Origin: Candidatus Aminicenantaceae bacterium
GTDB taxonomy: Bacteria; Acidobacteriota; Aminicenantia; Aminicenantales; Aminicenantaceae
Direction: 5' to 3'
DNA length: 64,000 nucleotides
Assembly: GCA_041862375.1 (NCBI GenBank)
Contig: JBGVTE010000141.1
Span: forward strand, 6,465 to 70,464
In this document: in pieces, positions 1,042-24,163 of the stretch
How positions within the stretch are numbered: the stretch's first letter is position 1
Layout: each line of letters opens with the position of its first letter
Position numbers and translations under genes: made by a program
The notes under the pieces: model-generated
What the model was told of the DNA's origin: nothing
Database searches by the model: none
Seen by the model: only the letters and a program-made list of their open reading frames with translations

Positions 1042-1062
1042 TAGTACTTTCAAGGCAAAAGG

Positions 1063-1905: not shown

Positions 1906-1907
1906 TC

Positions 1908-3986: not shown

Positions 3987-4071
3987 TTTGATTAAAAGTT
4001 TTATTGTTTTGATATTTATTTACATAAGTAAAATTTAAATTTTGCTGTTAAATCTCTGAGAGGAGACAGAA

Positions 4072-8733: not shown

Positions 8734-10401
8734 CTATCTCAGGGTTCCTTCGTAGTGAGCTGTCAATTGCCGTTTTTTTACATCTTCTGGTGTGTAAGAA
8801 GGTAGAAGAACTGGTGCAATTCGGTCTGTTTTGATTTTTGCTTTTTTCAGTTCATCCTCGTAATTTTGGATATGCTCTAGTGTTAGTTTGCTGAGTTTTA
8901 CAGATTTTGCATATTCAGCAGCATGTTTCCCGGCTCGGCGTCCAAACACGTTATAGTCAAGGACAGAATTTCCCATTAGTCGATTTCGTCCGTGCACTCC
9001 GCCTGAAGCTTCTCCTGCTACAAAGAGACCTGGAATGTTAGTTTCACATTTTTCGTTTATCTCGATTCCGCCATTCTGATAATGAAGAGAGGGATAGACG
9101 AGCATGGGTTCTTTAGTGATGTCAATACCGTAGCGGATAAATTGGCGATGCATTGCCGGAAATTGTTTGTTTATATAACCTTCTCCCTGAAGCATTTCAA
9201 TAAGGGGTGAGTCGAGCCAAACACCGAGGCGCCTACTCGGAGTTTCAATGCCATTTTTTCTTTCTAAGCATTCCCTTATGAATGCAGAACTCTCTACATC
9301 TCTTGGTTCACGCGGAAAGACAAAAAGCTCTCCAAGTTTATTGAGAGGCTGTCCACCTGCTCCCCTTATTTTTTCGGTGATTAGAAAACCTGCTATCTGT
9401 TCCGGAAAAGCTGCACCTGTGGGATGGTATTGCACAGAATCCATGTAAAGAAGCTGTGCTCCTGCTCGATAGGCCATGACAAGGCCGTCTCCCGTGGCAC
9501 CGTAGTGGTTTGTTGTATCAAATCCTCTTATATGAAGCCTGCCGTAGCCTCCTGTCGCAATAATCGTAGCCTTGGCTTTGACAGTAAAGTATTCTTCTGT
9601 TTCGAGGTTGTAGAGAATACCTCCTGAACACTGGCCTTTACTGTCCATTATTAATTCGACTATGGGCATGAATTCTAGAATTGTAATTTTATCGGAGTGA
9701 TTTCTTACTTCATCCATCAGAGTCCGCATGATAACTGCACCTGTATAATCGCGGCAGGAGTGCATCCTTTTCCTTGAAGTTCCGCCTCCGTGGAGAACCT
9801 GTAAGGAACCGTCTTCCAACTTGTCCCAAACTACGCCTAGGTCTTCGAGCCATTTGACTACTTCAGGCCCGTCTTCAGTAAGGGCACGAACGAGCTCAGG
9901 CTTGTTATCAAAATGACCTCCTCCGATTGCATCTAAGTAGTGACGAGTAGGGGAGTCTTGAGCAGTAACAGCTGCTTGCATTCCTCCTTGAGACATCATG
10001 GAATTGGCATCACCCAATCGAAGTTTTGTGGAAATAATTGACTTAGCTCCGTTTTGCATGGCAATGATAGCAGCTGCACATCCTGCACCTCCTCCTCCAA
10101 TGATTAAAATATCTGTTTCATAGTCAGTGCGCGCTAAATCAAATAACTCAGGCTTGATTCTTGAATGAGACTCTAACATATCCGCTACTTCTGTGGTAAC
10201 TAATTCCCCTTTATCTGGACCTATTCTTATTTTGCGTCTTGAATCAGGTTTATAGTCAGGATGAAACTTATTAAGAACTTCCTCTCTTTCTTCGGCACTC
10301 ATCGGAGGGAAAACAGGTTTTCCTGACGTTGCGAGTTCAAACCTCTTATTACGGGTTTGGGCGACTTTTTTCAGTGATTCATTCATGTAATCTGGATACA
10401 T
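8734..10401 (-). CDS. soluble fumarate reductase / succinate dehydrogenase flavoprotein-like FAD protein (FrdA/NadB superfamily)
   Basis: Rossmann motif 'ILIIGGGGAGCAAA', then 'YHPTG', 'ITEKIRGAGG' and 'HGRNRLMGNS'. There is no His at the covalent-FAD position ('ANSMMSQGG'). About 95 aa of N-terminal extension precede the FAD fold. Confidence 0.75.
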   Translation of the reverse strand: MYPDYMNESLKKVAQTRNKRFELATSGKPVFPPMSAEEREEVLNKFHPDYKPDSRRKIRIGPDKGELVTTEVADMLESHSRIKPELFDLARTDYETDILIIGGGGAGCAAAIIAMQNGAKSIISTKLRLGDANSMMSQGGMQAAVTAQDSPTRHYLDAIGGGHFDNKPELVRALTEDGPEVVKWLEDLGVVWDKLEDGSLQVLHGGGTSRKRMHSCRDYTGAVIMRTLMDEVRNHSDKITILEFMPIVELIMDSKGQCSGGILYNLETEEYFTVKAKATIIATGGYGRLHIRGFDTTNHYGATGDGLVMAYRAGAQLLYMDSVQYHPTGAAFPEQIAGFLITEKIRGAGGQPLNKLGELFVFPREPRDVESSAFIRECLERKNGIETPSRRLGVWLDSPLIEMLQGEGYINKQFPAMHRQFIRYGIDITKEPMLVYPSLHYQNGGIEINEKCETNIPGLFVAGEASGGVHGRNRLMGNSVLDYNVFGRRAGKHAAEYAKSVKLSKLTLEHIQNYEDELKKAKIKTDRIAPVLLPSYTPEDVKKRQLTAHYEGTLR

Positions 10402-10469
10402 CTGACACTCCTTATTAAGTTGCGAGCGACCCCTTTTTCTGTCATGTTGCTTTGGGTCAAATCCATTTT

Positions 10470-11213
10470 TTATTCCACGTCTCTATCGTAGTATTTCTTT
10501 TTTAATTCTTCTTTTTTCATATTAATGAATTCTTTGTATTCTTTATTATATTCATGCTTTTTTATTTCTTTTATTCTCTTTTTTAGTTGCTTGCTTTCCT
10601 TAGATAAATATTTCCCGAAGAGTCTTCTTGCGAGTAGACCGACATTATACTGTACTATTTCCGCCGGACACCTAATGGCACACATTCCGCAGCTTAGGCA
10701 GTCAAAGGAAAGATCCATGACTTTTTCGATGTCTCCCCGCATAGCTGCTTGGATGTAGTCCATAACTTCCAAATCTTGAGGACAGGCCTTAGTACAGGTG
10801 TTGCAAGCAACACATCGGAAAACTTCAGGATAAAGTTCTTGGAATGTTGAGACATTTGGGTCAAGTTTGTTAATATCATAAATAGGTTTTTGTGCAGGGA
10901 TGGATGGTAACTGAGAAAGCCACATTCCTTCTTGAACGAGAGTTGTACAGGCAAGCCCAGTATAAATTTTATAATCATTAGGAAGTCGGTATACCGTAGC
11001 GCAAGCACCACAGAAACCTTCGCGGCACCCTGCACCTCTTTTTATTTGATAACCAGAGTACTCGATAGCTCCCATGATTGTTGATTCAGCTGGCACTTTA
11101 TGAGCTTTACCCATGATGAATACGGTTGCCATTTCTTTTTTTTGGTCTGCTTTTGTGGATTTAACTTTAGTTTTTTTTATGGACTTCCTTTGAACTGCTT
11201 TCTTTGTTGCCAT
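10470..11213 (-). CDS. FrdB/SdhB-like iron-sulfur subunit (2Fe-2S plus two Cys clusters) with Lys-rich tails
   Basis: 'CREGFCGACA' (2Fe-2S), 'CVACNTCTKACP' and 'CLSCGMCAIRCP'. AAAGGAG Shine-Dalgarno precedes ATG 11213. Confidence 0.7.
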   Translation of the reverse strand: MATKKAVQRKSIKKTKVKSTKADQKKEMATVFIMGKAHKVPAESTIMGAIEYSGYQIKRGAGCREGFCGACATVYRLPNDYKIYTGLACTTLVQEGMWLSQLPSIPAQKPIYDINKLDPNVSTFQELYPEVFRCVACNTCTKACPQDLEVMDYIQAAMRGDIEKVMDLSFDCLSCGMCAIRCPAEIVQYNVGLLARRLFGKYLSKESKQLKKRIKEIKKHEYNKEYKEFINMKKEELKKKYYDRDVE

Positions 11214-11228
11214 CGTTAATATCTCCTT

Positions 11229-12059
11229 TTAATATTCTTGCGGAAGTTCTTTAAGCTCGGCCCAGGAATAGACAGGACCATCTTTACAAACATAGTGTAA
11301 ACCTATGTTGCATCTTCCACATTTCCCAATGCCACATTTCATTTTATTCTCAACAGTTGTGTATATTTGTTCATCTTCGAAACCAAGAGCTTTTAGATTC
11401 TGGATGACGAATTTGATCATGATGGGAGGACCACAAGTGACAGTGATGGCATTTTTTGGAGAAGGTTTTTTATCCAGAACATTCAGGGGAACAAATCCCA
11501 CGAATTCTTCCCAGCCCGGCTCCTCAACATCCACGGAAAGATGGACCGTAATTTTTTTCCTGAGTTCTTCCAGTTCCTCTTTAAAGACGAGATCTTTAGA
11601 TGTCCGGGCTCCGTAAATGAGCATGAGGTCTCTGTAGTCTTCTTTTTTACCCAAAGCTGTGTTAAGCACTGACCAGATTGGAGCTAAACCTATACCCCCG
11701 CCGATAAAGATGAGGTTTTTTTCCTTCCAATCTTCAATGGGAAAACCATTACCGTAAGGACCTCTAATTCCTATGATATCTCCGTTTTGCATTTCATGAA
11801 GTGCAGAGGTAACTCTACCCATCTTCAAGATACTGAATTGAAGATAATCCTTTATAAGAGGGGAAGATGAGATGGAGATCATTGATTCTCCCTTGCCGAA
11901 AACAGAGAGCATAGCACACTGTCCACAGTGAAAGGAAAAATCGTTGTCTTTAAGGAACTTTATCCTGAAAGTCTTGATGGGCCTTAAGCCGCCCACTTCT
12001 TCCTTTGTTTCGATTATTTTTGCCAGTCTTGGAATATAAGTATTATGGTCCATTATCAC
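11229..12059 (-). CDS. FlxA-like FAD/NAD(P)-binding 2Fe-2S oxidoreductase (PyrK/HydG/AsrB family)
   Basis: 'IGGGIGLAPI' nucleotide-binding motif and C-terminal 'CGIGKCGRCN' cluster. Overlaps the upstream gene by 17 nt. Confidence 0.75.
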   Translation of the reverse strand: MIMDHNTYIPRLAKIIETKEEVGGLRPIKTFRIKFLKDNDFSFHCGQCAMLSVFGKGESMISISSSPLIKDYLQFSILKMGRVTSALHEMQNGDIIGIRGPYGNGFPIEDWKEKNLIFIGGGIGLAPIWSVLNTALGKKEDYRDLMLIYGARTSKDLVFKEELEELRKKITVHLSVDVEEPGWEEFVGFVPLNVLDKKPSPKNAITVTCGPPIMIKFVIQNLKALGFEDEQIYTTVENKMKCGIGKCGRCNIGLHYVCKDGPVYSWAELKELPQEY

Positions 12060-13083
12060 TCACCTTACTGAGGACTTCAATGATGTCTATTCCAACAGGA
12101 CATTTTGAAACGCATCTTCCACAGCCAGTACACTGATAACTTTTGTATCGTTCGACAAAATACTGAAATTTATGCAGGATTCTCTGGCGTAGGCGGGAGG
12201 ACCTATCTGGCCTGGGATTATGCCCAGAAGAGTGCATAGTAAAATCAGGAAACTGACAGTTGTCCCACGTTCTCACTCTCTTCCCTTTAAGTGGGGAGGA
12301 AGTGGTAACTTCGTCATTGATATCAAAGCAATGACATGTGGGACATAGATATGTGCATATACCACATCGAATACAGCTCAGAGATTCTTCATTCCAGAAA
12401 GGCACCTCAAACATCTCCTTGAGTTTAGGAGGTATCTTTTTTATTCCAGTGATTTGTCTTTTGATTTTTTTCTCTGAATCAGCTTTTATTTTATCTGCGT
12501 CTTTCTTATCTTTTTCTTTAGGCGTCTGGAATATTTCTTTGGCTGCATTTATGAGTTGATTGCCTTTTTGTGTCAGTGACTCTACGATGTATTTATCTCC
12601 TAAATCAGTCATCAAGATGTCTAGCCCATCTTTGGAATGAGGAGAACCATCGACTGAAAGACAGAAGCAGTTGGGAGATGGGGGAGAGCTACAGGTAAGT
12701 CCAACAAGAATTGTTGAGTTTCTTCTCTTAAAGTAATAAAGATCTTCAAAGTCACCTCCAAAAACTTTATCCATCAGAGTAAGAGCTTTTGCATCGCACG
12801 GTCTCACGCCAAAGATTACAGCAGGTCTTTCCTCAGGGAGAACTTCTGTGACCTGAATGCCTTCTTCGTTTGAAGAGTTAAACTCGAGAAGGATTTCTCT
12901 CTGGGGAAAAATAATTTTCTTAAGAGAGAGGACTGTAGTAAGATAATCCAGGTCTATGCTTTGAAGATTATCAGTGAGCTCATAGTTCCAGAGATCATCC
13001 TTATTCACAGGCGCATATATCGCATAAGTTGTAAGTTTTTTTACCCAGTGAGGGAAGGATATTTTTGGTAGTATTTTTTCCAT
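12043..13083 (-). CDS. FlxB-like 4Fe-4S protein (sulfhydrogenase beta / AsrA family); start trimmed to ATG 13083
   Basis: 'CIRCGICTYLCPTCHC' and 'CTGCGRCVSKCP'. The track ORF runs to 13197, but that extension overlaps the upstream gene by 110 nt. 'MEKILPK' starts 4 nt after the upstream stop. Confidence 0.7.
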   Translation of the reverse strand: MEKILPKISFPHWVKKLTTYAIYAPVNKDDLWNYELTDNLQSIDLDYLTTVLSLKKIIFPQREILLEFNSSNEEGIQVTEVLPEERPAVIFGVRPCDAKALTLMDKVFGGDFEDLYYFKRRNSTILVGLTCSSPPSPNCFCLSVDGSPHSKDGLDILMTDLGDKYIVESLTQKGNQLINAAKEIFQTPKEKDKKDADKIKADSEKKIKRQITGIKKIPPKLKEMFEVPFWNEESLSCIRCGICTYLCPTCHCFDINDEVTTSSPLKGKRVRTWDNCQFPDFTMHSSGHNPRPDRSSRLRQRILHKFQYFVERYKSYQCTGCGRCVSKCPVGIDIIEVLSKVSDNGP

Positions 13084-13087
13084 TGTT

Positions 13088-14119
13088 TTACCTGATAAAA
13101 TCTTCTGGATCTTCATCCTTAAAACATGAAACAAGAGAGGGCTGATCAGAGTCAAAGCCAGCCTCATAGTTAAAGAGCTCTTTGGCTTCCTTTTCAAGTT
13201 TTTTATTCAAGAGCCTGATTGGTATATCAAGGGGACATACCCTTTCACATTCCCCACAATCAATACAGCGACCTGCGAGATGAATAGCTCTGACAAAGTG
13301 ATACACAAAATTTTCTGAAAAAGCAGGGGATTTCTCCACCCATTTTATTTTTTGTGCTTTTTCATCCGCAGTAGTATCAGCTGTAACAGCAAAATTTATA
13401 GTGTCAATTACGCATTCATCACAATAGCACATAGGACAAACAGACCGGCAGGCATAACAGCGAATGCATTTATCAAGCTGTTTTTTCCAGAAAGCCCACT
13501 TTTCCTCTCTAGGTATTGCTTCGATTTTCTCAATGGATTTAAAAGGATCATCCAATTTTTTACTGACCTTTTCTCCAAGAAAGACATCATACACAACTGG
13601 ATAATTAGCCTTGCATTCAAGACATCTTTCAGCGAGCATCTCTTTAACGGGAATTTCAATTTTAGCTTCTTCAGTAGTAATGACAAAATTATCATTTTTA
13701 CTAAACTCTATGTTTTTGGCTTCTTTGCCTTTCAATTTTTTATTGAGTTTTTTCTCATCTAGAACTCCAGCGTGTTCGCAGGATACGCCGATGAGAAAAA
13801 CATCATCTCGGTTTATGAATTTCTCTTGCAGCAAGACATTAATTGCTCGGCTGTCACAACCTTTTACAATGAGTCCCACAGGTCTTTCATCAGGTTTCTT
13901 TTCTCGAGCTTTGCTTCTTTTTTCATCAACGAGATAACGGCTGAGATTGTGAATGCAGGAAGGATCCCAGATTAATTTCTCAACATCCTCAGCACTTCTT
14001 ATAAAAGCCGGAATTGGAAGGGAACTGTTTGTCCCTCGCTTATACCCGATGACGTATTTTACTTTTCCTTCCTCAAGAATTTTTTTTACTTCTTTTTTTA
14101 GGTCTTCGAGGCTTACCAT
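13088..14119 (-). CDS. FlxC-like 4Fe-4S cluster protein
   Basis: 'CIRCYACRSVCPMCYC' and 'CIDCGECERVCP'. Its start overlaps the mvhD-like stop by 1 nt (TAATG). Confidence 0.65.
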   Translation of the reverse strand: MVSLEDLKKEVKKILEEGKVKYVIGYKRGTNSSLPIPAFIRSAEDVEKLIWDPSCIHNLSRYLVDEKRSKAREKKPDERPVGLIVKGCDSRAINVLLQEKFINRDDVFLIGVSCEHAGVLDEKKLNKKLKGKEAKNIEFSKNDNFVITTEEAKIEIPVKEMLAERCLECKANYPVVYDVFLGEKVSKKLDDPFKSIEKIEAIPREEKWAFWKKQLDKCIRCYACRSVCPMCYCDECVIDTINFAVTADTTADEKAQKIKWVEKSPAFSENFVYHFVRAIHLAGRCIDCGECERVCPLDIPIRLLNKKLEKEAKELFNYEAGFDSDQPSLVSCFKDEDPEDFIR

Positions 14120-14541
14120 TATTGCTCTCTCCTCAGCTTTGTTTGAGGACCAAGTGACTTGAGTTCTTTTACAAAGTCTTTGATTATTTGAGTATATTTT
14201 GTACCTTCAGCTGCCGATATCCAAGACATCTGGAAACGCTGTGGTTCGAGACCGATATATTCTAGAAGTTTTTTGACAAATGCTATCCGTCGTCGGGCAT
14301 AATAATTACCTTTTATATAGTGGCAGTCACCTGGATGACAGCCTGATACTAAGACTCCGTCTGCTCCTTTGTTAAAGGCATCCAGTATGTATAAGGGGGA
14401 GACACTTCCTGAGCACATAACAGTAATGGGGACAACATTAGATGGATACTCCATGCGGGACACACCTGCAAGATCACTCCCAGCTGAAGAGCACCATTTG
14501 CAGAGAAACGCGACTAATTTTGGTTCAAACTCATCTCCCAT
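14119..14541 (-). CDS. MvhD/FlxD-like protein (methyl-viologen-reducing hydrogenase delta subunit family)
   Basis: 'VAFLCKWCSSAG' and 'VSGCHPGDCHY'. 140 aa, 2 nt downstream of hdrA. Confidence 0.85.
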   Translation of the reverse strand: MGDEFEPKLVAFLCKWCSSAGSDLAGVSRMEYPSNVVPITVMCSGSVSPLYILDAFNKGADGVLVSGCHPGDCHYIKGNYYARRRIAFVKKLLEYIGLEPQRFQMSWISAAEGTKYTQIIKDFVKELKSLGPQTKLRREQ

Positions 14542-14543
14542 TA

Positions 14544-16490
14544 TCAGCCTCCAAGTGATGCCCTTATCATTTCATGAATTTGTAACGGAGTCAGGTTTAT
14601 GACTTTTATAGCTGCTCTTAAGCACGTAGCTGAGCAGGTTCCACATCCTTCACACAGGACTTCATTCACTTCGACTTTTCCTTCTTTTAGTGAAAGAGCG
14701 TCATAAGGACAAACATGAACACACATTCCACAACCTGTACAGAGGTTCATTTCAACTTTAGCTACAGTGGGAGCATGATAAAGTCTATCTTGGGATAGTA
14801 TAGAAATAGCTTTAGCAGCTGCACCGCTTGCTTGCGCTACAGCTTCAGGAATATCTTTAGGAGCTTGAGCTGCTCCTGCTAGGAACAATCCAGATGTTAC
14901 ACTTTCAACAGGTCTAAGCTTAGGATGTGCTTCTGAAAGAAAGCCATCCTTATCCATGGCAATTTTAAGTTTCTTAGCCAGCTCTTCTGCTCCCCTGGAT
15001 GGACGCATAGCAGTAGCCAGTACAACCATATCAGCATTGATCTCGATATCTTTTCCGATGAGTGTGTCAACTCCCCAGACTTTGATCTTTCCCTTATCAT
15101 CGAAAATTTTTGAAACTTTACCACGAAGGTAAAGAACTCCGTCCTCTTCTACTGCTCTCTGAACAAATTCCTCGTAGCCCTTTCCACCTGATCTGATATC
15201 AATATAGAAGATATACGCTTGGCCATCAGGGACATGATGTTTATAGAGCATAGCATGTTTGGCTGTGTACATGCAGCATATTTTTGAGCAGTAGGCGCAG
15301 TGAAGTTCGGGATCGCGGGAACCGACGCACTGGATGAAGACAACCTCTTTTGGCTCCTTATGATCTGAAGGCCTGAGTATCTTTCCCATTGTCGGGCCAG
15401 AGGCAGAACAGAGTCTCTCAAACTGGAGACCATCGAGGACATCTGAATATTTTCCATATCCATACTCAGCCATCATCTTTTTATCATAGAGGTCATATCC
15501 AGTAGCAACTATTATTGCTCCTACATCTTCCTCGACGATTTCTGGTTTCATATCATAATCAATGGCTTCTGGTTCACAGACATCTGCGCATTTCCCGCAG
15601 GCAATAGGGAGTAAGCCAGGACACCCTTTTATATCAAGTGTATACGTTGCTGGAATAGCTTGGGGGAAAGGAATATAAATGGCCCGCCGTCCTGTTAAGC
15701 CAATATCAAATTCGTTAGGTACTACAACAGGGCAGACTTTGGTGCATTCATCACAGAGAGTACATTTGTCTGGGTAAACATACGTGGGGTGTTTTAGAAT
15801 TTTGACTTTAAAATTTCCTACATAACCAGAGACCTCTTGGACTTCACTGTAAGTTAAGAGTTTGATTTGAGGGTGTTTTGATACTTCCACCATTTTTGGC
15901 GTGAGAATACACTGGGAACAATCGAGTGTAGGGAAGGTTTCAGATAGCTGGATCATGTGGCCTCCTATAGAAGGAGACCTTTCTACCAAGATTACTTCAA
16001 AGCCACTGTTGGCTAAGTCTAATGCAGCTTGGATGCCTGCGATTCCGCCACCGATAACCAAGGCTCTCCGGGTTACTGGAATGCTTATTGGATCCAAAGA
16101 TTCATTCCTTCGAACTCTTTTAACAGCACTTTTTGTAATTTTTATTGCTTTCTCTGTTGCTTTTTCAATATCTTTATGGACCCAACTGCATTGTTCACGG
16201 ATATTAGCGATCTCGCATTGAAAAAGATTAATCCCAGCTGATTTGGAAGCGTTCCTGAAGGTTGTTTCATGGAGGGTAGGGGAGCAACAGGCAACAACCA
16301 CACTATCCAGCTTTTTTTCATTTATGGCATCTATGATAAGGTTCTGACCTGGATCAGAACATACATAAACGTAATCTTCAGAATGGATGACTCCTGGATA
16401 TCTAGATAGCTCTTCAGAGACACGCTTGACATCCACAGTTCCTGCAATGTTTATGCCGCAGTGGCATATAAAAACTCCTGTCCGTTTCAT
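14544..16490 (-). CDS. hdrA: heterodisulfide reductase subunit A-like flavoprotein
   Basis: N-terminal 'GVFICHCGINIAG', 'VIGGGIAGIQAALDLA', and C-terminal ferredoxin clusters 'CTGCGMCVHVCP' and 'CEGCGTCSATC'. Confidence 0.9.
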   Translation of the reverse strand: MKRTGVFICHCGINIAGTVDVKRVSEELSRYPGVIHSEDYVYVCSDPGQNLIIDAINEKKLDSVVVACCSPTLHETTFRNASKSAGINLFQCEIANIREQCSWVHKDIEKATEKAIKITKSAVKRVRRNESLDPISIPVTRRALVIGGGIAGIQAALDLANSGFEVILVERSPSIGGHMIQLSETFPTLDCSQCILTPKMVEVSKHPQIKLLTYSEVQEVSGYVGNFKVKILKHPTYVYPDKCTLCDECTKVCPVVVPNEFDIGLTGRRAIYIPFPQAIPATYTLDIKGCPGLLPIACGKCADVCEPEAIDYDMKPEIVEEDVGAIIVATGYDLYDKKMMAEYGYGKYSDVLDGLQFERLCSASGPTMGKILRPSDHKEPKEVVFIQCVGSRDPELHCAYCSKICCMYTAKHAMLYKHHVPDGQAYIFYIDIRSGGKGYEEFVQRAVEEDGVLYLRGKVSKIFDDKGKIKVWGVDTLIGKDIEINADMVVLATAMRPSRGAEELAKKLKIAMDKDGFLSEAHPKLRPVESVTSGLFLAGAAQAPKDIPEAVAQASGAAAKAISILSQDRLYHAPTVAKVEMNLCTGCGMCVHVCPYDALSLKEGKVEVNEVLCEGCGTCSATCLRAAIKVINLTPLQIHEMIRASLGG

Positions 16491-17059
16491 TTTTTCCCCT
16501 TTTTCTCTTCAGATGAAATTTTCTTGCCGTATTCATACCCTTTATCAAATGCTCGTATGTTAAGGTCGAGAAATCTTCCAGGAACTAATCCAGGGAGCGC
16601 TTTTTTTATAGCTTCTGGGGAAACGATTTTAGTAACAGCAGAGAAAAATCCTAGCATGACGAGGTTTGCTATGATTCGATTCCCTAGCTCTTCTGCAAAC
16701 CGTGTGGATGGAATAGCATACATTTTAATCTTCCCTCGAGGAGGCTTGGCCCTAACTAAATCTTTGTCGATGATGAGGATTCCATTGTCCTTCAATTCTG
16801 GCTCGTATTTATCATAGGCTTCTTGGGACATGGAAACGAGAATTTCTGGGATTGTGATATAGGGGTAGAGAACTCTGTCATCAGAAACAACGAGTTGGCT
16901 GCTACAGGCGCTTCCTCGTGCCTCAGGACCAAAACTCTGGGTCATCGTGGCTTGTTTATTATCAAAGAGGGCAAGGGCCTTTCCTGTGATAAGGCCACAC
17001 CGGATAATCCCTTGGCCGCCAAAGCCAGAAAATCTAATCTCAGCCATTGTTTTCTCCAT
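16487..17059 (-). CDS. korC: 2-oxoacid:ferredoxin oxidoreductase gamma subunit
   Basis: 'FSGFGGQGI'. 190 aa. 4-nt overlap with hdrA and 20-nt overlap with the beta subunit. Substrate is not determinable from sequence. Confidence 0.8.
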   Translation of the reverse strand: MEKTMAEIRFSGFGGQGIIRCGLITGKALALFDNKQATMTQSFGPEARGSACSSQLVVSDDRVLYPYITIPEILVSMSQEAYDKYEPELKDNGILIIDKDLVRAKPPRGKIKMYAIPSTRFAEELGNRIIANLVMLGFFSAVTKIVSPEAIKKALPGLVPGRFLDLNIRAFDKGYEYGKKISSEEKKGKK

Positions 17060-17912
17060 AAGGTTGGTATTTATCTCCCAGTACTTTGGCGAGATGAGTA
17101 TTCATGCAATCCAAGAAAGTAGGTTTATCTTTTTCTACAAACTTTCCAACGATGAGTTTTCCTTGGTAACTTATATCAAGGGTTCTGGTGTCTGCTCCGT
17201 GCTGGATTTCAGATTTTTCATAGTAATATTTTAAAAGGTTCAGTCCATCACCTAGCCGATTCCTTCGGGCATAGAGAGTTACACAGGGAGTTATGACTTC
17301 AATGAAAGAGAAGCCCTTCCTTGCAAGAGCTTCTTGAATTGATTTAGTTACTCTTCTGAGATGAAGTGCAGTCCAGCGAGCTACATACGTTGCACCACTG
17401 GCTTCTGCTAAATAAGGAAGGTTGAAGGGATATTCAAAATTTCCATAAGGAGCAGTGGAGGCATTTGCGTCAATCGGAGTTGTAGCTGCAACTTGTCCGC
17501 CTGTCATGGCATAGTTAAAGTTATTCACACAGATAATTATGAGATCCATATTACGCCTTGCTGCATGAATAAAATGGTTACCTCCAATTCCTGCAATATC
17601 TCCATCACCGCTGAAGACGACTACTTTTAATTCAGGATTTGCCAATTTTAATCCAGTAGCAACAGGAATAGCCCGGCCATGGGTAGTGTGAATGGAATCC
17701 AGTTTAACGTACCCGGCAACCCTTCCAGTGCACCCTATTCCAGATAATATGGCAACTTTATCCAGGTCTAATTCGCTTTTACGCAGTGCTTCTGCAAATG
17801 AAGTAACAACAGTTCCTATTCCACAGCCAGGACACCAGATATGAGGTATCCTGTCCATTCTCAGGAAGCTTTCAATAGGGTTTTTTTCTTCGAGAAGATC
17901 TTCTTTCTTCAT
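17040..17912 (-). CDS. korB: 2-oxoacid:ferredoxin oxidoreductase beta (TPP-binding) subunit
   Basis: 'WCPGCGIG' and 'FSGDGDIAGIGGNH' TPP motif. Confidence 0.88.
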   Translation of the reverse strand: MKKEDLLEEKNPIESFLRMDRIPHIWCPGCGIGTVVTSFAEALRKSELDLDKVAILSGIGCTGRVAGYVKLDSIHTTHGRAIPVATGLKLANPELKVVVFSGDGDIAGIGGNHFIHAARRNMDLIIICVNNFNYAMTGGQVAATTPIDANASTAPYGNFEYPFNLPYLAEASGATYVARWTALHLRRVTKSIQEALARKGFSFIEVITPCVTLYARRNRLGDGLNLLKYYYEKSEIQHGADTRTLDISYQGKLIVGKFVEKDKPTFLDCMNTHLAKVLGDKYQPYGENNG

Positions 17913-19075
17913 TTTGAGGCCTCCTTGATTGCATTGAATATATCATCTGGATTATGGACCCAGCCGCCACAGTGAGGTACGGGGATAGCAGGAGCTCGGC
18001 CTGCAGCGCTTCTTTCAACCTCTAAGACAACCTGGCCGTAATTTATCTCTGGGACGACAAAAGCCTTCACTTTTTTTGACAGTTCATGTATCCTTTTTTC
18101 AGGGAAAGGCCAGACAGTGATAAGTCTGATTGTTCCAACTTTCATGCCAGCTTTTCTTGCTTTCTGGACTGCTCTTACGGCTACTCGTGATGTTATTCCG
18201 TAGGAAATGACGATAATCTCAGCAGTATCTGTCTCTTCTTCTTCAAGTTCAATAATTTTATCTGCTTGCATCGTTATTTTATCAACCAGATGGCGGACAC
18301 AAACATCTTGGAATTCAGCATTAATAGCCGGGTAGCCTCGTTCATCATGGGTTAATCCTGTGACATGGAAGTGATATCCATCTCCAACCTTGACCATAAA
18401 GGGAACCATATCTTTATCAGGCTTGAAAGGAAGGTATTTATCCTTTGGACCTTTGTACCACTTTCTCTCAACCAGCTCAATCTCTTCTGCTTGAGGGATA
18501 ACAACTTTCTCGTGCATGTGCCCCACACACTCATCTGCCATGACAAAAGCTGGAATCCGGTAAATCTCAGATAGATTGAAGGCTTTTATAGTAAGATCAA
18601 AGCATTCCTGAGGAGAATCGGGTGAGAGGGCGATGATTTCATAGTCTCCATGTGATCCCCATTTTACCTGCATCATGTCCTGCTGTCCTGTTAATGTTGG
18701 AAGTCCTGTTGATGGGCCTCCTCTTTGGACATTGGCAATAACAAGAGGAGTTTCTAACATGCAAGCTAATCCTATGTTCTCCATCATTAAAGAAAAACCA
18801 GGCCCAGATGTTACAGTCATAGCTTTCTTCCCCCCCCAGGAGGCTCCTATTAAAGCTGCAATTGAAGCGAGTTCGTCTTCCATCTGGATGAAGACGCCTC
18901 CTACGGTGGGTATCCTCTCAGAAAATCTTTCAGCTGTCTCGGTAGAGGGAGTAATGGGATAGCCAGCAAAAAATCGGCAGCCAGCCGCAAGAGCCCCTTC
19001 AGCAATAGCATAGTCTCCGTCAAGATAGTGGGCTCCCGTTAAAACTCCTTTAGGGTCTGCTTTCACCTTTTTCAC
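17909..19075 (-). CDS. korA: 2-oxoacid:ferredoxin oxidoreductase alpha subunit
   Basis: '[24 protein letters not shown]'. 388 aa. Confidence 0.88.
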
Positions 19076-19331
19076 CTTCTTCCTCCTCTTTCTCTTTTTT
19101 TAGAGTGACAAATATGGCAAATTCAGGACAAATTGTCTCGCAGAGTTGGCAGTAGAGGCACTCCTCCTCATCCTTTACTCGAGGAGGATGATAACCTTTT
19201 ATGTTAAATTCTTCAGACAACTCAAGAACATCTTTTGGACAATATTCTACGCAAAATGCACAACCCTTGCATCTATCTTTGTTAATATGTATTTTGCCCC
19301 TTTTGGCTTTTAAATCGCCAAAATAAACCAT
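19050..19331 (-). CDS. korD: 2-oxoacid:ferredoxin oxidoreductase delta subunit (2x[4Fe-4S] ferredoxin)
   Basis: '[12 protein letters not shown]' and '[12 protein letters not shown]'. 93 aa, directly upstream of korA. Confidence 0.8.
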
Positions 19332-19338
19332 TTGTTCC

Positions 19339-20217
19339 TCAAATCAATCCTTTTTCTTTTAAAATCGGCCTTGGGTCAACATAATGAAGGTCAAATCTTA
19401 GGTTTTTTTCGGAACAATCCAAGGCAATAGCCATAACCTGAGTAAAATAAAGGATAGGAATGTTCTTAAAGTCTGGATATTTCTGTACAGTCTCTTTTTG
19501 GCGTTGGTCCAGGTTGAAGGCACAAAGAGGGCAACTGACAATCACAACCTCAGCGCCCTGGCTTTGGGCTGAGGAGAGGATGTGGTAAGTTCGATCAGCC
19601 ACAATTTCAGGTTTGTCAACCGTTTGATAAGCAGCACAGCACTCTGTCTTGTAAGGAAAATCAATCGGAATTGCACCCAGAGCAGCCATAAGATTTTCCA
19701 GGATTGTTGGATTTTCAACATCATCCAAGCCTATATCTTTGGGGCGTACGAGGAGACATCCGTAATAGCTAGCAATTTTTAGATTTTTTAATGGATTAAC
19801 TGCTTTTTCAGCGATGGTCTCAAACGTTATTTCATCTTTCAACAACTCCAAAAGGTGGAGCACTTTTACATCGCCTGCATAGTCGATTTTCTCTCTATAC
19901 ATAAACTTGTTTATCTTTTCCAAGCTTTCTGGATCTGCTTTAACCCGTTCGTTCACTCTTTTTAGAGTGTTGTAGCACATGGCGCAGAGAGTCATGACTC
20001 TGTCTGAGTTTGACTCTTTGACTCGAATGAGGTTACGGATGGGAGCCACGTGGTGAATCAAATCATCAGTGGCTAATGAAAAGACTGTCCCGCAACAGTT
20101 CCATCGTGGGAGCTCTTCGATCTCGACGCCGAGATGTTTTAAAGAACATAGAGTTGAGTCTTCAAAGTTTTTCGCATTGTTTTTCAGAGTGCAACCTGGA
20201 TAATAGCTTATTTTCAT
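19339..20217 (-). CDS. hdrB: heterodisulfide reductase subunit B-like protein (two CCG domains)
   Basis: 'YYPGC' with 'WNCCGT', and 'YYGC' with 'TECCAAY', in the duplicated CCG-domain arrangement. Confidence 0.85.
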
Positions 20218-20268
20218 TATGATTCCCTATATTATTAAGATTAAAAAAATAATGTATCATAATTAATT

Positions 20269-20676
20269 TTAAGAGGTAAATTTTCTCATACTGCTGATCA
20301 TGGCTATGGGAGGAACACTACCTTTTTCTTCGCTTGTAAGCTTTTTAACTTTAAGATGATCCTCTCTCTTTCTCAGTAAGACTTGTCTTAGAGCTTCAAT
20401 TACTTCAGCTATGTTGATTCCTTTTGGACAACGGGCATTGCAGGTAAAACAGGAAGCACATATCCAAATAGACTTAGCCTGTAAAAGTTCATCCTTTAAT
20501 CCAAGCTGGGCGTAGCGGATTATTTGGTTGGGGAGGATATCCATCTCAGAAACTGCGGGACACCCAGCAGAGCACTTGCCGCACTGATAACAGGCGAGGA
20601 GATTCTGCCCGCTGATTTCTTCAACTTTAGTCACAAAGTTGTCTTTGATCTTTTTTCTGGAGATATTTATTCTCAT
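20269..20676 (-). CDS. hdrC: heterodisulfide reductase subunit C-like 4Fe-4S protein
   Basis: 'CYQCGKCSAGCP' and 'CASCFTCNARCP'. 135 aa, upstream of hdrB. Confidence 0.8.
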   Translation of the reverse strand: MRINISRKKIKDNFVTKVEEISGQNLLACYQCGKCSAGCPAVSEMDILPNQIIRYAQLGLKDELLQAKSIWICASCFTCNARCPKGINIAEVIEALRQVLLRKREDHLKVKKLTSEEKGSVPPIAMISSMRKFTS

Positions 20677-20735: not shown

Positions 20736-20817
20736 TTAATATAGGAAAGAATTACCTTTAAGTAAAACATATTTAGGAAAAACTGTCAAGAAAATTGATG
20801 AAATTTAATGAAAATTT

Positions 20818-22992
20818 TTATAGTTTTCTCAAACCTCCTACTAGAAAGAGGAAGCAGAAAGAATTGAGAATAAAGAGATATTTTACTAGAAGAGGAAGTC
20901 CAAAGAGAGGAATAATGAGAGTAGAAGCTATGAGTGCGCCTGAAAAGGAACCCAATAAATCCAAGCCGTAGCCCAATCCATAGTTTTTACGTTCTTCCAG
21001 AAAGAGGTTGTTTGAAACAACAAATAAGTCTCCTCCAAGAAAGCCAAGGACCAGCAGAAATAAAAATGAGGAAAATTCTGGCGGGGATAATTTTAATGAG
21101 AAATTCAGAAGGAGAAGGAGAAGGAGAAAACCAAACTGGATGAAAAGAATTTGGGAGAAATGATATTTTTTTCTTATTGTGCCTCGGAATGCCCCCAGTA
21201 GCAAGCCTGTCATAAAAGAAGTTAATAGAAGGGCAATCCTTCTGTAGAGGTAGCCAAACTGGGTTTGAAAAAAGATGATGATAATTATTTCAGCAACAAT
21301 AGTTGTAAAGCCCATAACAGCCAAGGGAACCAGGAAAAAGTTTGTCTTTTTTCCCCTCAGCCAGAGTAATAAAAGAAAAAGGATAAAGACGAGCAGAGGT
21401 AAGTCGAGAAGCCAAAAAGAGTTAATCTCAGAAAAGAAAGAAAGAACTCTTTTTTCTATTCCCTTAAATTGAGTGCTCCATAAGATTGAGGTATAAAAGT
21501 AGCTTATAGGGATTAAATCCAGGTTTATAATTCTCTTTCCTTTTGTAATTTTTTCTTTGAGGAGGTCTACTCTTAAGCGATTAAGACGAGAAAATAAAAG
21601 ATGGGGGCTGACAAAGGAGTTTTGGAGGTCTAGCTTTTCTATTTTTCTGTTTAATTCTTCAAAATCTATAGAGAGGAGGCGGTCTGAAGCAAGAAAAATG
21701 TTTGTATCACCAGGGACAATTTCGATTTTTGCAAAGATTTCTTTTAGGGTGAAATAGAGAGAGGAAAGAAAATTCTGCAACTCAAGACTGACATAGTTCT
21801 CAGCTGAGGGCACCCTAAACGAAACTAATCCTTTCTCTGTGAGTTTTTCTTTGGCCTTAAGGAAAAATTCTTTTGTATAAAATCTGTTTATCTGAGCTGT
21901 TGAAGGCTCAGGAAGGTTGAGGATGATAATGTCGTATTTTTTTTCAACTCTGTATAGAAAAGCTCTGCCATCCTCGAAGTAAATCTGAACTCTCCCGCTT
22001 TTTAGATACATCTTTTCTTCTTCAGGCAGAAGTTGAAGGGATAAACTGATTATTTCAGGGTCTAATTCTACGTAATCTACCTCAACCTGAGAGTATTTTA
22101 AAAGCTGTTTCAGGCTTCCCCCAACTCCTCCACCTATGAGCAGGACATTTTTTGCTTGGGGATTTTGAAGGAGAGCAAAATGAATAGATTCTTCTGAAGA
22201 AGCTAAATCAGGGTGAGAATATACGAGAAGACTGTTGTTGTAGAGAGAAATCTGCTCTTCAGTCTTTATACACTGAAGCTTTCCGTAGCGGCTGTCCTTG
22301 CTCTTCATTAGGTGAAAAGGTGTCCAATAGATCTTCTGGGTTGGTATATCGAGAAGTACAAAAGCAGAGAGTGCGACAAGAGAAAGAACAAATAAAAATC
22401 CTTCTTTCCTTCTTCTTAAAGTCAGAAAAGTTAATAGAGAAGAAAATCCTCCAACAATTGCAACGCCTTGCCAGTTTGAAAAAAAAGGAATTAGAAAGAA
22501 GTAAGCTGCGAGTCCTCCGAGTGATGCTCCGAGAGATTCCAAAAGATAGACTTGCATAAGGTTTCCACTTCTGAAAAAGACATTAAAAACAAAGAGGATT
22601 CCGAGAGGAGAACTTATGAAAAAAGATAAAATCATAGAGAAGACTATCGCTGTGGTGAGACCTGTCATTTCTCCGGGTAAGATTTTCAGGAAGAAACGTG
22701 AAAACCTGAGGCAAAGAAGTGATAAGGGAAAAGCAAGGATGACAAGATAATAGACTCGAGAAAGCATGGAGGGTCTGAATGAAAATTTCGAGGCAGAAAT
22801 ACTTCCTACGCCACCCCAAAGAAGCCATGAGGCTAGAAGAAGGCCATATGTGATTTCATTTCCGTAAAAATGAGCTGAGAATTCTCTCAAGAGAAAGATT
22901 TGAAAGGAAAGGGCTAAGAATCCCAGAAGGAAGGAGGGGAGGAGGTTTATCAACTCCAAATTCCGGGTATGGGTGTTCTGCAGAACCTGCAT
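20818..22992 (-). CDS. polytopic membrane protein with a central spermidine-synthase-like (SpeE-fold) domain; non-canonical active site
   Basis: Multiple hydrophobic segments at both ends. Central motifs 'VLLIGGGVGGS', 'VELDPEI' and 'YDIIILNLPEPS' match the SpeE scaffold, but the canonical Asp residues are replaced. Confidence 0.7.
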   Translation of the reverse strand: MQVLQNTHTRNLELINLLPSFLLGFLALSFQIFLLREFSAHFYGNEITYGLLLASWLLWGGVGSISASKFSFRPSMLSRVYYLVILAFPLSLLCLRFSRFFLKILPGEMTGLTTAIVFSMILSFFISSPLGILFVFNVFFRSGNLMQVYLLESLGASLGGLAAYFFLIPFFSNWQGVAIVGGFSSLLTFLTLRRRKEGFLFVLSLVALSAFVLLDIPTQKIYWTPFHLMKSKDSRYGKLQCIKTEEQISLYNNSLLVYSHPDLASSEESIHFALLQNPQAKNVLLIGGGVGGSLKQLLKYSQVEVDYVELDPEIISLSLQLLPEEEKMYLKSGRVQIYFEDGRAFLYRVEKKYDIIILNLPEPSTAQINRFYTKEFFLKAKEKLTEKGLVSFRVPSAENYVSLELQNFLSSLYFTLKEIFAKIEIVPGDTNIFLASDRLLSIDFEELNRKIEKLDLQNSFVSPHLLFSRLNRLRVDLLKEKITKGKRIINLDLIPISYFYTSILWSTQFKGIEKRVLSFFSEINSFWLLDLPLLVFILFLLLLWLRGKKTNFFLVPLAVMGFTTIVAEIIIIIFFQTQFGYLYRRIALLLTSFMTGLLLGAFRGTIRKKYHFSQILFIQFGFLLLLLLLNFSLKLSPPEFSSFLFLLVLGFLGGDLFVVSNNLFLEERKNYGLGYGLDLLGSFSGALIASTLIIPLFGLPLLVKYLFILNSFCFLFLVGGLRKL

Positions 22993-24068
22993 TTTCCTCC
23001 ACTGAGCTCGATTTTCATTATTTGATAACCAACCCGCTTGACAACTATGTTTTTGCAGCTAGGACAATAAGTGCTTTCTGCCTTATGGCCGGGTATATTT
23101 CCTATGTAGACGTAGTGAAGCCCTTCTTCGAGCGCCACTTTATGAGCCTTTTCCAACGTTGATACAGGAGTGGGTGGAAGATTTTTAACAAGATACATAG
23201 GGTGAAATCGAGAAAAGTGAACTGGAACATCAGGTCCGATCTCTTTCCTGAGCCAGCGGCACATCTTCCTGATTTCTTCTGGCCTATCGTTTAAGGTTGG
23301 AATCACGAGATAAACTATCTCAAGCCATGTATCGCTTCTGTTGACAATTTTAATTGCCTCTAGCACTGGCTCTAATTTTCCCTTCACATAGCTGTGGTAA
23401 AAATCCCCAGAGAAGGATTTTAAGTCAATTTTTATAGCATCTACTACCTTTATTAGATCTTGAAGAGGCTCAGGATTTATATGCCCACCGGTGATAACAA
23501 CATTTCTGATTCTTTTTCTGCGTGCCTCTACCGAAGTGTCAAACATGTATTCAAAGAAAATGACCGGTTCTGTATAAGTGTAGGCAATAGAAGGACATTT
23601 ATATTTTTGAGCATAATTAACAACAGATGAAGGAGGGAAATCATAATGTCTCACCTGTTCCGGTCTTACCTGGGATATCTCCCAATTCTGGCAAAACTTA
23701 CAGTTAACATTACAGCCTGCAGTGGCGATGGATAGCGCATTCGTTTTTGGAAGAAAGTGAAAAAAAGGTTTCTTTTCTATTGGATCAACATGGATGGCAC
23801 AGGCTTTTCCGTAGACTAAGGTATAGTATTTTCCTCCTATGTTTTCTCTCACTCCACAGTACCCTCTTTCCTTATCGCCAAGTTTGCAAAATCGAGGACA
23901 GAGGGTGCATTCTATTTCCCTGTCAGGATGTTTCTTGTAGTAGCGGGCTTCAACCTTGGAGAGGTTTGCATACTCTCCAAAAGCGAATGAATCCATAAAA
24001 TAGGGAGTAAGACTGGAACTAGCAATGAAACTTGCTCCTGCTGATTTAAGAAATTGACGTCTTTTCAT
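22950..24068 (-). CDS. AmmeMemoRadiSam-type radical SAM enzyme with a twin-arginine signal; start placed at MKRRQF
   Basis: 'KRRQFLKSAGASFIASSS' Tat-like leader, 'CNVNCKFCQNWE' CxxxCxxC motif, 'CGVRENIGGKYYTLVYGK', and a C-terminal Cys pair. The track ORF starts 10 codons earlier, at 24098. Confidence 0.75.
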   Translation of the reverse strand: MKRRQFLKSAGASFIASSSLTPYFMDSFAFGEYANLSKVEARYYKKHPDREIECTLCPRFCKLGDKERGYCGVRENIGGKYYTLVYGKACAIHVDPIEKKPFFHFLPKTNALSIATAGCNVNCKFCQNWEISQVRPEQVRHYDFPPSSVVNYAQKYKCPSIAYTYTEPVIFFEYMFDTSVEARRKRIRNVVITGGHINPEPLQDLIKVVDAIKIDLKSFSGDFYHSYVKGKLEPVLEAIKIVNRSDTWLEIVYLVIPTLNDRPEEIRKMCRWLRKEIGPDVPVHFSRFHPMYLVKNLPPTPVSTLEKAHKVALEEGLHYVYIGNIPGHKAESTYCPSCKNIVVKRVGYQIMKIELSGGKCRFCRTPIPGIWS

Positions 24069-24163
24069 CTTCTTGATAAAGCCGGACTCGATAACCAAAA
24101 AAAAGGATTTTTTATGGTATTTTTATGTAAAAAAATTTAATTTTTCTCTTTTAATTCATTATA

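Follow-up and report, generated by a model that had tools for sequence, protein, structure and literature searches.

In 2019, Rubin-Blum, Dubilier and Kleiner described in mSphere (PMC6315080) korABCD and tfrAB genes interspersed with flxABCD-hdrABC in tubeworm symbionts (Escarpia, Riftia, Ridgeia), in Thioflavicoccus mobilis and in the aquifer metagenome-assembled genome (MAG) RIFOXYD12_FULL_61_37, and proposed a complex that bifurcates NADH electrons to 2-oxoglutarate:ferredoxin oxidoreductase (OGOR) and fumarate reductase. In their expression table, reductive tricarboxylic acid (rTCA) cycle cluster 1 reads frdB frdA hdrC hdrB korD korA korB korC hdrA flxD flxC flxB flxA aclB aclA idh rubrerythrin, and the 13 genes from frdB to flxA were all expressed in the gammaproteobacterial symbionts. 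The gene block analyzed here comprises 13 minus-strand genes at positions 8734-20676 of a 64,000-nt stretch of a Candidatus Aminicenantaceae genome (assembly GCA_041862375.1, contig JBGVTE010000141.1, positions 6,465 to 70,464; hereafter the window). It has the same 13 gene families as the published cluster and the same internal 11-gene order, hdrCB-korDABC-hdrA-flxDCBA, a likeness that rests on the published annotation of that cluster and not on sequence alignment. The frdBA pair, which stands before hdrC in the published cluster, is transposed in the window and follows flxA. The organisms with the published cluster are autotrophic sulfur oxidisers, and in them aclBA, idh and rubrerythrin come next; none of these genes lies beside the window operon. 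A sequence-only reading of the window could not tell whether the arrangement had been described; it had been published with the same bifurcating proposal, and its Flx-Hdr-Frd part appeared in a second paper (PMC7282089).

In that second paper, Koendjbiharie et al. (2020) described a co-expressed "succinate operon" of Pseudoclostridium thermosuccinogenes, composed of fumarase, Flx-Hdr, fumarate reductase and a putative transporter, and cited a 2019 preprint (10.20944/preprints201912.0288.v1, known to us through this citation) as proposing a bifurcating fumarate reductase. The hdrBC-hdrA-mvhD-flxCBA-frdBA families of this operon, and of a corresponding block in gut and rumen Clostridia, Treponema and Bacteroidaceae, are shared with the window at 29-57% identity per protein, and the P. 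thermosuccinogenes operon likewise has a proposed NADH-dependent, ferredoxin-reducing fumarate reductase. In contrast to the window, this form has no kor, hdrB precedes hdrC, and the flanks hold fumC and an Asp-Al_Ex permease. The FlxABCD-HdrABC system of Desulfovibrio vulgaris (Ramos et al. 2015, cited by both PMC6315080 and PMC7282089), a proposed route by which electrons from NADH are bifurcated between ferredoxin and a high-potential acceptor, consists of seven protein families that are all found in the window: full-length HdrA, two-CCG HdrB, two-[4Fe-4S] HdrC, MvhD-like FlxD and the Flx subunit domains. However, the window genes are ordered hdrCB...hdrA-flxDCBA and not flxABCD-hdrABC, and the operon holds no dsrC-like gene and has FrdBA instead; the D. 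vulgaris system relies on a DsrC disulfide acceptor and a link to alcohol dehydrogenase, and has neither Frd nor Kor. For archaea, Adam et al. (PMC9635834) reported Tfr to be syntenic with an Hdr-like complex.

We favor, with moderate confidence, the reading that the window operon encodes a cytoplasmic flavin-based electron-bifurcating system together with an enzyme that uses its low-potential output. Observed directly, and set out in turn here, are the gene content, the solubility of the products, intact cofactor motifs, the catalytic residues and conserved synteny.

The 13 ORFs are consecutive and co-directional, in the transcription order hdrC-hdrB-korD-korA-korB-korC-hdrA-mvhD/flxD-flxC-flxB-flxA-frdB-frdA. 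Their placement at 8734-20676 in the sequence-only reading was confirmed, and recomputation returned identical values for its twelve junctions, which are 51, 7, -26, -4, -20, -4, 2, -1, 4, -17, 15 and 68 nt in transcription order (negative values are overlaps). The 4-nt gap before flxB requires the ATG at 13083 rather than the TTG of the longest ORF at 13197; from this ATG, FlxB has 346 aa, the length called in relatives. Alternative starts exist for KorA (GTG at 19075 or 19066), KorC (ATG at 17059 or 17047) and FlxA (GTG at 12059 or ATG at 12053), and shift the respective overlaps by a few nt. Purine-rich runs resembling Shine-Dalgarno sites precede most of the 13 starts, and the two 4-nt overlaps and the 1-nt TAATG overlap are classical coupling junctions.

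Neither promoter-like matches (30 against 35.8 ± 5.9 in shuffled sequence) nor terminator-like matches (12 against 15.8 ± 3.9) are enriched inside the block. Lying at or below the shuffle expectation, they speak neither for nor against a splitting of the block. The 141-nt intergenic region upstream of hdrC contains a promoter-like site, TTTACT-17-TATATT (20738..20766, minus strand), with 9 of 12 consensus matches; it is weak evidence, as such matches are not enriched over shuffles. A gathering-threshold scan with Rfam and a tRNA scan gave no match in the whole window. No transmembrane segment was found in any of the 13 products.

A search of public genomes for the same gene order, as proposed in the sequence-only reading, found the identical 13-gene order in four further Aminicenantes contigs (L001, L002, L086 and L087), with FrdA 86-90% identical to that of the window. 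In one of them, L086, the downstream flank is wholly different and unrelated to that of the window. Thus, we conclude that the block is a conserved unit and not a chance run of genes. The earlier claim of a single unit is upheld as far as this conserved order goes; as to its transcript, the 13 genes are presumably co-transcribed.

Searches of the ORFs with profile hidden Markov models recovered the domain content named earlier for all 13 products, and Fe-S motifs are present in HdrC, KorD, FrdB, FlxB and FlxC. HdrA (14544..16490; 648 aa) is an FAD/Fe-S flavoprotein of the electron-bifurcating type that scores 839 bits against the HdrA2 model NF040770 and aligns end to end with Methanothermococcus HdrA (5ODC_A; 722 bits, residues 3-643 against 5-647). 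The adjacent [2Fe-2S] adaptor MvhD/FlxD (14119..14541; 140 aa) matches PF02662 FlpD at E = 8e-53. HdrC (20269..20676; 135 aa), the small subunit with two [4Fe-4S] sites, has Fer4_8/Fer4_17 matches and two CxxCxxCxxxC motifs, its best NCBIfam match being HdrC TIGR03290, below cutoff. HdrB (19339..20217; 292 aa) has two CCG domains (PF02754, twice; non-cubane [4Fe-4S] sites) and scores below cutoff both with HdrB TIGR03288 (176 bits) and with SdhE-like NF042965 (154 bits). All ten of its CCG cysteines are invariant across homologues from Aminicenantes, Asgard archaea, Bathyarchaeia, Ruminococcus and Treponema.

On the donor side, the FlxA-like NAD(P)H/FAD and [2Fe-2S] subunit (11229..12059; 276 aa) combines NAD_binding_1 with DHODB_Fe-S_bind and is of the PyrK/HydG type; the HydG, ShyC, AsrB and PyrK models all match it below cutoff. 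The FlxB-like Fe-S protein (12043..13083; 346 aa) is of the sulfhydrogenase-beta/AsrA type, with PF17179 Fer4_22, HydB, ShyB and AsrA models below cutoff, and 191 bits to the beta subunit of P. furiosus sulfhydrogenase I (9nez_B). The FlxC-like Fe-S protein (13088..14119; 343 aa) matches only Fer4 families and carries two CxxCxxCxxxC and two CxxC motifs. Its orthologues in relatives show a weak FrhB_FdhB_C match, and it is 31-38% identical to the counterparts in Clostridia and Treponema; among the Flx subunits, its predicted assignment is the weakest.

The four kor genes give a complete alpha, beta (thiamine pyrophosphate, TPP), gamma and delta set of a four-subunit 2-oxoacid:ferredoxin oxidoreductase. 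KorA (17909..19075; 388 aa; POR_N and PFOR_II), the alpha subunit, reaches 563 bits with NF006412, above the cutoff of 411, and its matches in the Protein Data Bank (PDB) are 1yd7_A (383 bits), the 2-oxoglutarate synthase alpha subunit 8ys5_A (287 bits) and 6n2n_A (226 bits). For the TPP-binding beta subunit KorB (17040..17912; 290 aa; TPP_enzyme_C) the best NCBIfam match is 2-oxoglutarate ferredoxin oxidoreductase beta NF007207, at 233 bits and below cutoff. The gamma subunit KorC (16487..17059; 190 aa; PF01558 POR) scores 203 bits against NF006323, for which the cutoff is 235. KorD (19050..19331; 93 aa), the delta subunit with two [4Fe-4S] sites and two CxxCxxCxxxC motifs, has OGOR_delta NF042987 and OorD as best NCBIfam matches, both below cutoff. 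This Kor is probably a 2-oxoglutarate:ferredoxin oxidoreductase, and its Frd neighborhood supports a specificity for 2-oxoglutarate/succinyl-CoA.

The FrdB protein (10470..11213; 247 aa) has a [2Fe-2S] and two [4Fe-4S] sites (Cx4Cx2C...C and two CxxCxxCxxxCP motifs), and domain and motif scans found no CCG domain in it. It weakly matches TfrB residues 5-92 and SdhB, and its gene adjoins frdA in every one of more than 80 loci. FrdA (8734..10401; 555 aa) is a soluble flavoprotein of the fumarate reductase type with FAD_binding_2 at 260 bits; its best NCBIfam match is TfrA (355 bits; cutoff 718), aligned only over model positions 5-428 of 546. Both alignments show the catalytic residues H326, R346, R367, H440 and R474 without variation; E343 is invariant in alignment A1 and nearly so in A3. 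Asn133, invariant in the subfamily, aligns with the FAD-linking His of complex II enzymes, and the FAD would accordingly be bound non-covalently. Non-covalent FAD in this enzyme class favors fumarate reduction over succinate oxidation.

FrdA carries an N-terminal extension of about 90 residues (residues 1-93), which is confidently folded in an AlphaFold2 model of the protein (pLDDT 86, pTM 0.88). The best PDB match of the model is E. coli FrdA (1KF6_A; TM score 0.67), on which the 555-aa protein superposes over about 453 alignment columns. Because the catalytic residues are conserved and the best fold match is E. coli FrdA, the protein is predicted to be a fumarate/succinate-type flavoprotein. 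An enzyme of the complex II type was ruled out, given that there is no membrane anchor, no Succ_DH_flav_C (PF02910) match and Asn133 in place of the FAD-linking His. In an exhaustive search of representatives, the same architecture was present in several 50%-identity clusters, and in one relative (P0122) FrdB and FrdA are naturally fused into one protein. Metagenomic homologues of FrdA at 86-92% identity number in the hundreds and, where named, belong to Candidatus Aminicenantes. By sequence and architecture, FrdBA belongs to a distinct soluble subfamily. A paralogous FrdA family of Gammaproteobacteria (including P0475 of the Ridgeia endosymbiont), which corresponds to "cluster 2" of PMC6315080, is 42-47% identical to the window protein. 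Among the proteins annotated in the oxygenic phototroph Prochlorococcus sp. MIT 1201 is a subfamily member (P0126/P0285) that has the N-terminal extension and 42% identity.

A profile of the FrdA subfamily was scanned over one genome per species, and the 80 loci returned were searched by BLAST with the 13 window proteins. The complete block hdrB-hdrC-hdrA-mvhD-flxC-flxB-flxA-frdB-frdA was found in 45 of these 80 species-level loci, hence in at least 45 species, and most of the other Clostridial loci among them end at contig boundaries. Carriers of this nine-gene block are Lachnospiraceae, Ruminococcus (including R. flavefaciens), Oscillospiraceae, Christensenellaceae, Treponema and Bacteroidaceae MAGs; Clostridial identities to the window are 33-36% for HdrC, 37-39% for HdrB, about 50% for HdrA and 53-55% for FrdA. 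In R. flavefaciens and Treponema a class II fumarase gene (fumC) lies immediately upstream of the block. In R. flavefaciens, and also in Treponema, a succinate-exporter-like permease of the Asp-Al_Ex family lies just downstream. None of the 80 loci contains kor. On this distribution, Kor is a lineage-specific addition, which Aminicenantes share with some archaea and certain Gammaproteobacteria.

Sixteen loci, all from Nitrospirota, have frdBA only, with no Hdr or Flx genes. The two of them that were examined (L054 and L056) show aclB-aclA-aconitase/isocitrate dehydrogenase-frdB-frdA-sucC-sucD, that is, a reverse-TCA cluster. The Nitrospirota loci (L054, L056 and 14 others, within L007-L078) include N. 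defluvii and N. lenta MAGs, and the electron donor of their FrdBA is not evident.

The closest relatives of the window FrdA outside Aminicenantes are archaeal (58% identity), from Bathyarchaeia, Asgardarchaeia and a "Halobacteria archaeon" MAG, and the archaeal kor-hdr-mvh-frd clusters of Asgard archaea and Bathyarchaeia are the nearest relatives of the window Hdr, Kor and Frd proteins (48-63%). In an Asgardarchaeia MAG (L084; GCA_052584985.1) the genes korD-korA-korB-korC-hdrA-mvhD-mvhG-mvhA-hycI-hdrC-hdrB-frdB-frdA lie on one strand, with identities to the window of 58% for HdrC, 48% for HdrB, 58% for KorA, 54% for KorB, 49% for KorC, 63% for HdrA, 58% for MvhD, 58% for FrdB and 59% for FrdA. 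The order korDABC-hdrA-mvhD is that of the window. Unlike the window, hdrCB and frdBA are contiguous, and FlxABC is replaced by an [NiFe] Mvh hydrogenase (MvhG, MvhA, HycI). In an alternative archaeal form, HdrA is fused to MvhD and no gene for a donor lies nearby; in two Bathyarchaeia-type loci (L085 and L089), korCBAD and the hdrA::mvhD fusion are divergent from hdrB-frdB-frdA, and hdrC was detected in L085 only. A Bathyarchaeon (L083) combines malic enzyme, fumarase alpha/beta and frdBA, adjoining a 2-oxoacid oxidoreductase and a CCG protein.

The "Halobacteria archaeon" MAG (L090; GCA_038850285.1) has hdrC-hdrB-hdrA, a gene for a 977-aa HdrA/Pyr_redox-like flavoprotein, then mvhD, an FrhB_FdhB_C protein, frdB and frdA. 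No kor was found within 10 kb of this locus, and its donor may be F420H2-linked. The hdrA gene of the Asgardarchaeia locus (L084:2617-4566) is uncalled in the public gene set and has one in-frame TGA, at codon 509. This TGA aligns with a Leu of the window HdrA, and hence not with a Cys or selenocysteine position; possible explanations are an error in the sequence, a pseudogene and stop-codon recoding. In a Ridgeia/Riftia-type endosymbiont (L088; JGI 3300002593) the paralogous frdB-frdA pair lies next to gltA and two mdh genes and precedes genes for a NuoF-like (Complex1_51K) protein and a two-subunit Kor (gltA-mdh-mdh-frdB-frdA-nuoF-like-korAB). The NuoF-like protein may represent a fourth kind of donor module that serves the same Frd family, working directly from NADH.

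Across these loci, the Hdr/MvhD/FrdBA core is constant, whereas the donor module differs, being Flx, an Mvh hydrogenase or FrhB-like, and Kor is attached in several lineages. The synteny of Hdr, Flx, Frd and Kor across phyla and domains supports a functional unit that joins NAD(P)H, ferredoxin with Kor, and fumarate. The earlier claim that Hdr/Flx, Kor and Frd work as one unit is strengthened by this synteny, and needs to be narrowed in that nine of the 13 genes form a wider core to which Kor is a lineage-specific addition.

Because frdBA elsewhere occurs with fumarase, permease, SucCD, ATP citrate lyase (ACL) and malic enzyme genes, the predicted substrate pair of FrdBA, fumarate/succinate, is fixed by context. 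The same evidence bears on the idea that the FAD protein is an L-aspartate oxidase-like or other dicarboxylate oxidoreductase, or belongs to a confurcating succinate dehydrogenase running in reverse, which we consider very improbable. The score of NadB models (271 bits) comes close to those of Frd models (294-355 bits), and several public annotations label homologues as aspartate oxidases. However, the obligate Fe-S partner FrdB and the natural FrdB::FrdA fusion are foreign to NadB, and contexts with fumarase, the succinate-exporter-like permease, SucCD and ACL do not fit it. As for a reverse confurcating enzyme, the non-covalent FAD disfavors succinate oxidation, and by our own calculation from standard potentials the reaction of succinate and reduced ferredoxin to 2 NADH is endergonic. 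NadB and the confurcating succinate dehydrogenase were both rejected on these grounds: the Fe-S partner and fusion, the genomic contexts, the non-covalent FAD and the energetics.

In the bifurcating scheme that we favor, for which we infer complex formation, bifurcation, and the direction and substrate of Kor, NAD(P)H would be oxidised by the FlxA/B/C module and the electrons would pass via MvhD (FlxD) to the FAD of HdrA, where the pair would be split. The high-potential electron would run through HdrC, HdrB and FrdB to the non-covalent FAD of FrdA and reduce fumarate to succinate. The low-potential electron would leave through the ferredoxin domains of HdrA to ferredoxin, or directly to KorD, and with this reductant Kor would form 2-oxoglutarate by carboxylation of succinyl-CoA. 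The summed reaction would be 2 NADH + fumarate + succinyl-CoA + CO2 -> succinate + 2-oxoglutarate + CoA. If Kor is reductive, each bifurcation would serve one fumarate reduction and one succinyl-CoA carboxylation, in the 1:1 ratio that the reductive TCA branch needs. The standard potentials are -320 mV for NADH, +33 mV for fumarate/succinate and about -450 mV for ferredoxin. With these values, the reaction of 2 NADH, fumarate and oxidised ferredoxin is exergonic, and the reverse, succinate-driven confurcation is not.

How the high-potential electron reaches FrdA is the point at which a thiol-mediated system of two enzymes would differ. In such a system, Flx-HdrABC would reduce a soluble (hetero)disulfide or the disulfide of a DsrC-like protein, and a Tfr-like enzyme would re-oxidise the thiols, a possibility raised by Rubin-Blum et al. 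(PMC6315080). In HdrB the heterodisulfide-reducing site retains each of its ten CCG cysteines, and the best family match of FrdA is TfrA; the complete disulfide-reductase site of HdrB could mean that a thiol/disulfide carrier operates between HdrB and FrdB. On the other hand, the single-subunit architecture of TfrB, with [2Fe-2S], two [4Fe-4S] and two CCG domains, is not found in the window FrdB, and, with the thiol-oxidising CCG domains of TfrB missing, no site for thiol oxidation can be recognised in the Frd pair. TfrB is instead matched piecewise, by FrdB over residues 5-92, HdrC over 118-242 and HdrB over 262-480, which suggests that HdrBC and FrdB together may act as a split TfrB. The operon also holds no gene for a carrier protein or for thiol biosynthesis. 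We consider the thiol-mediated system quite improbable. Since FrdB lacks a thiol-oxidising CCG domain, a direct Fe-S wire from HdrB to FrdB appears more likely than a diffusible thiol, and the label thiol:fumarate reductase, used in the sequence-only reading, reduces to a resemblance in which the CCG domains sit on the separate HdrB and none on FrdB.

Several points weigh against the bifurcating scheme with a reductive Kor. For Aminicenantes, a heterotrophic and fermentative way of life has been predicted (PMC5459899). No aclBA, sucCD, fumarase or mdh was found among the 20 further ORFs scanned in the window (4-5169 and 24164-44355, the sequence beyond about 44.4 kb being unscanned). The nine-gene core stands without Kor in most carrier lineages. 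Among the Kor models, only the generic 2-oxoacid alpha model passes its cutoff, and those specific for 2-oxoglutarate remain below theirs. The sequence-only reading had named an earlier characterisation of the same order as grounds for refutation. The order has been described, with frdBA transposed (PMC6315080), whereas our literature search, with subscription journals outside its coverage, found no biochemical characterisation of this cluster class; nor did it find a description in Aminicenantes.

Given a fermentative phylum and no such TCA genes in the scanned parts, Kor might run oxidatively. This is the core of a rival account, in which the block is a "succinate operon" for separate, co-regulated enzymes that serve a branched, fermentative TCA pathway, and Kor and Hdr are linked neither physically nor by an obligatory electron transfer. 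Kor would convert 2-oxoglutarate to succinyl-CoA, CO2 and reduced ferredoxin, Flx-Hdr-Frd would reduce fumarate, and both branches would feed succinate and the ferredoxin pool. The predicted fermentative lifestyle, the absence of kor from the cluster in most carriers of the nine-gene core and the lack of rTCA marker genes in the scanned parts of the window all agree with this account, as does the P. thermosuccinogenes scheme, which has an oxidative OOR branch beside Flx-Hdr/Frd (PMC7282089). However, the kor set is placed within the hdr genes (hdrB|kor|hdrA), with korC and hdrA overlapping by 4 nt. The order korDABC-hdrA-mvhD is kept in an Asgard archaeon and, per the published list, in rTCA-using Gammaproteobacteria (PMC6315080), a linkage of kor and hdr that is tighter than co-regulation usually yields. 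We regard this account as somewhat unlikely and retain the bifurcating scheme as the preferred one.

At the opposite extreme, Kor could be a physical module of a 13-subunit supercomplex, with KorD taking low-potential electrons directly from the ferredoxin domains of HdrA. We think this unlikely. If it were true, NADH, or H2 in the Asgard version, would drive the carboxylation of succinyl-CoA without free ferredoxin, and the cost would be met by fumarate reduction in a fixed 1:1 ratio, making the machine a TCA-branch counterpart of the formylmethanofuran dehydrogenase-Hdr (Fmd-Hdr) supercomplex of methanogens. Its donor modules would be exchangeable (Flx, Mvh, FrhB-like or NuoF-like), and the unit would have passed between archaea and bacteria.

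The operon is flanked by speE-like, radical-SAM, HD-GYP, HEAT, glyQS and gcvP genes, with housekeeping and signalling genes in the wider set of scanned ORFs. Directly upstream, 141 nt from hdrC, the minus strand encodes a 724-aa spermidine-synthase-domain protein (20818-22992), whose match to the fused MFS/spermidine synthase NF037959 is barely above cutoff. Further upstream on the same strand is an AmmeMemoRadiSam radical-SAM enzyme (22950-24098). Downstream of frdA, gcvP-glyQ-glyS (window 1-5169) is syntenic with L001 and L087. The genes between gcvP-glyQ-glyS and frdA differ, with HD-GYP/HEAT/PKD in the window and PilZ and others in L001/L087, so this interval appears to be a variable spot beside a fixed operon. 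The prfB gene (RF2; 41743-42834, minus strand) has the canonical +1 programmed frameshift (...LRGFL-stop, after which the main frame resumes) and is ordinary.

The source of ferredoxin for 2-oxoglutarate synthase in the reductive TCA branch and the electron donor of soluble fumarate reductases are both open questions in anaerobic metabolism. If the class works as proposed, one bifurcating machine would answer both. The module is far more widely spread than the two publications (PMC6315080 and PMC7282089) suggest, extending to succinate producers of the gut and rumen, Nitrospira (frdBA only), Aminicenantes, Bathyarchaeia and Asgard archaea. It is relevant to succinate formation in the gut, carbon cycling in sediments and rTCA autotrophy, and there are cultivable carriers, namely Ruminococcus flavefaciens, P. 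thermosuccinogenes and Thioflavicoccus mobilis.

Methanogens offer a further comparison. Their MvhADG-HdrABC complex (PDB 5ODC) has HdrA, HdrB, HdrC and MvhD homologous to those of the window. In contrast to the window, CoM-S-S-CoB is diffusible in methanogens and TfrB has its own CCG domains, whereas the window FrdB is free of such domains and its operon shows no evident thiol carrier. In methanogens, bifurcation supplies ferredoxin while an Frd-type enzyme (TfrAB) and Kor make 2-oxoglutarate, which is the same logic as that of the window operon. The Fmd-Hdr supercomplexes of methanogens (PDB 7BKB and 9SW6) provide a precedent for a CO2-fixing enzyme wired to HdrA with free ferredoxin bypassed, and the window HdrA is homologous to theirs (644 bits to 7bkb_A). 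They differ from the window in their partner enzyme and in having a polyferredoxin linker, and serve for the Kor analogy only. Set beside these systems and the published gammaproteobacterial and Clostridial clusters, the window operon is the Aminicenantes instance of a published predicted class whose principle is not new, and it adds a new phylum, a transposed frdBA and a setting without rTCA context.

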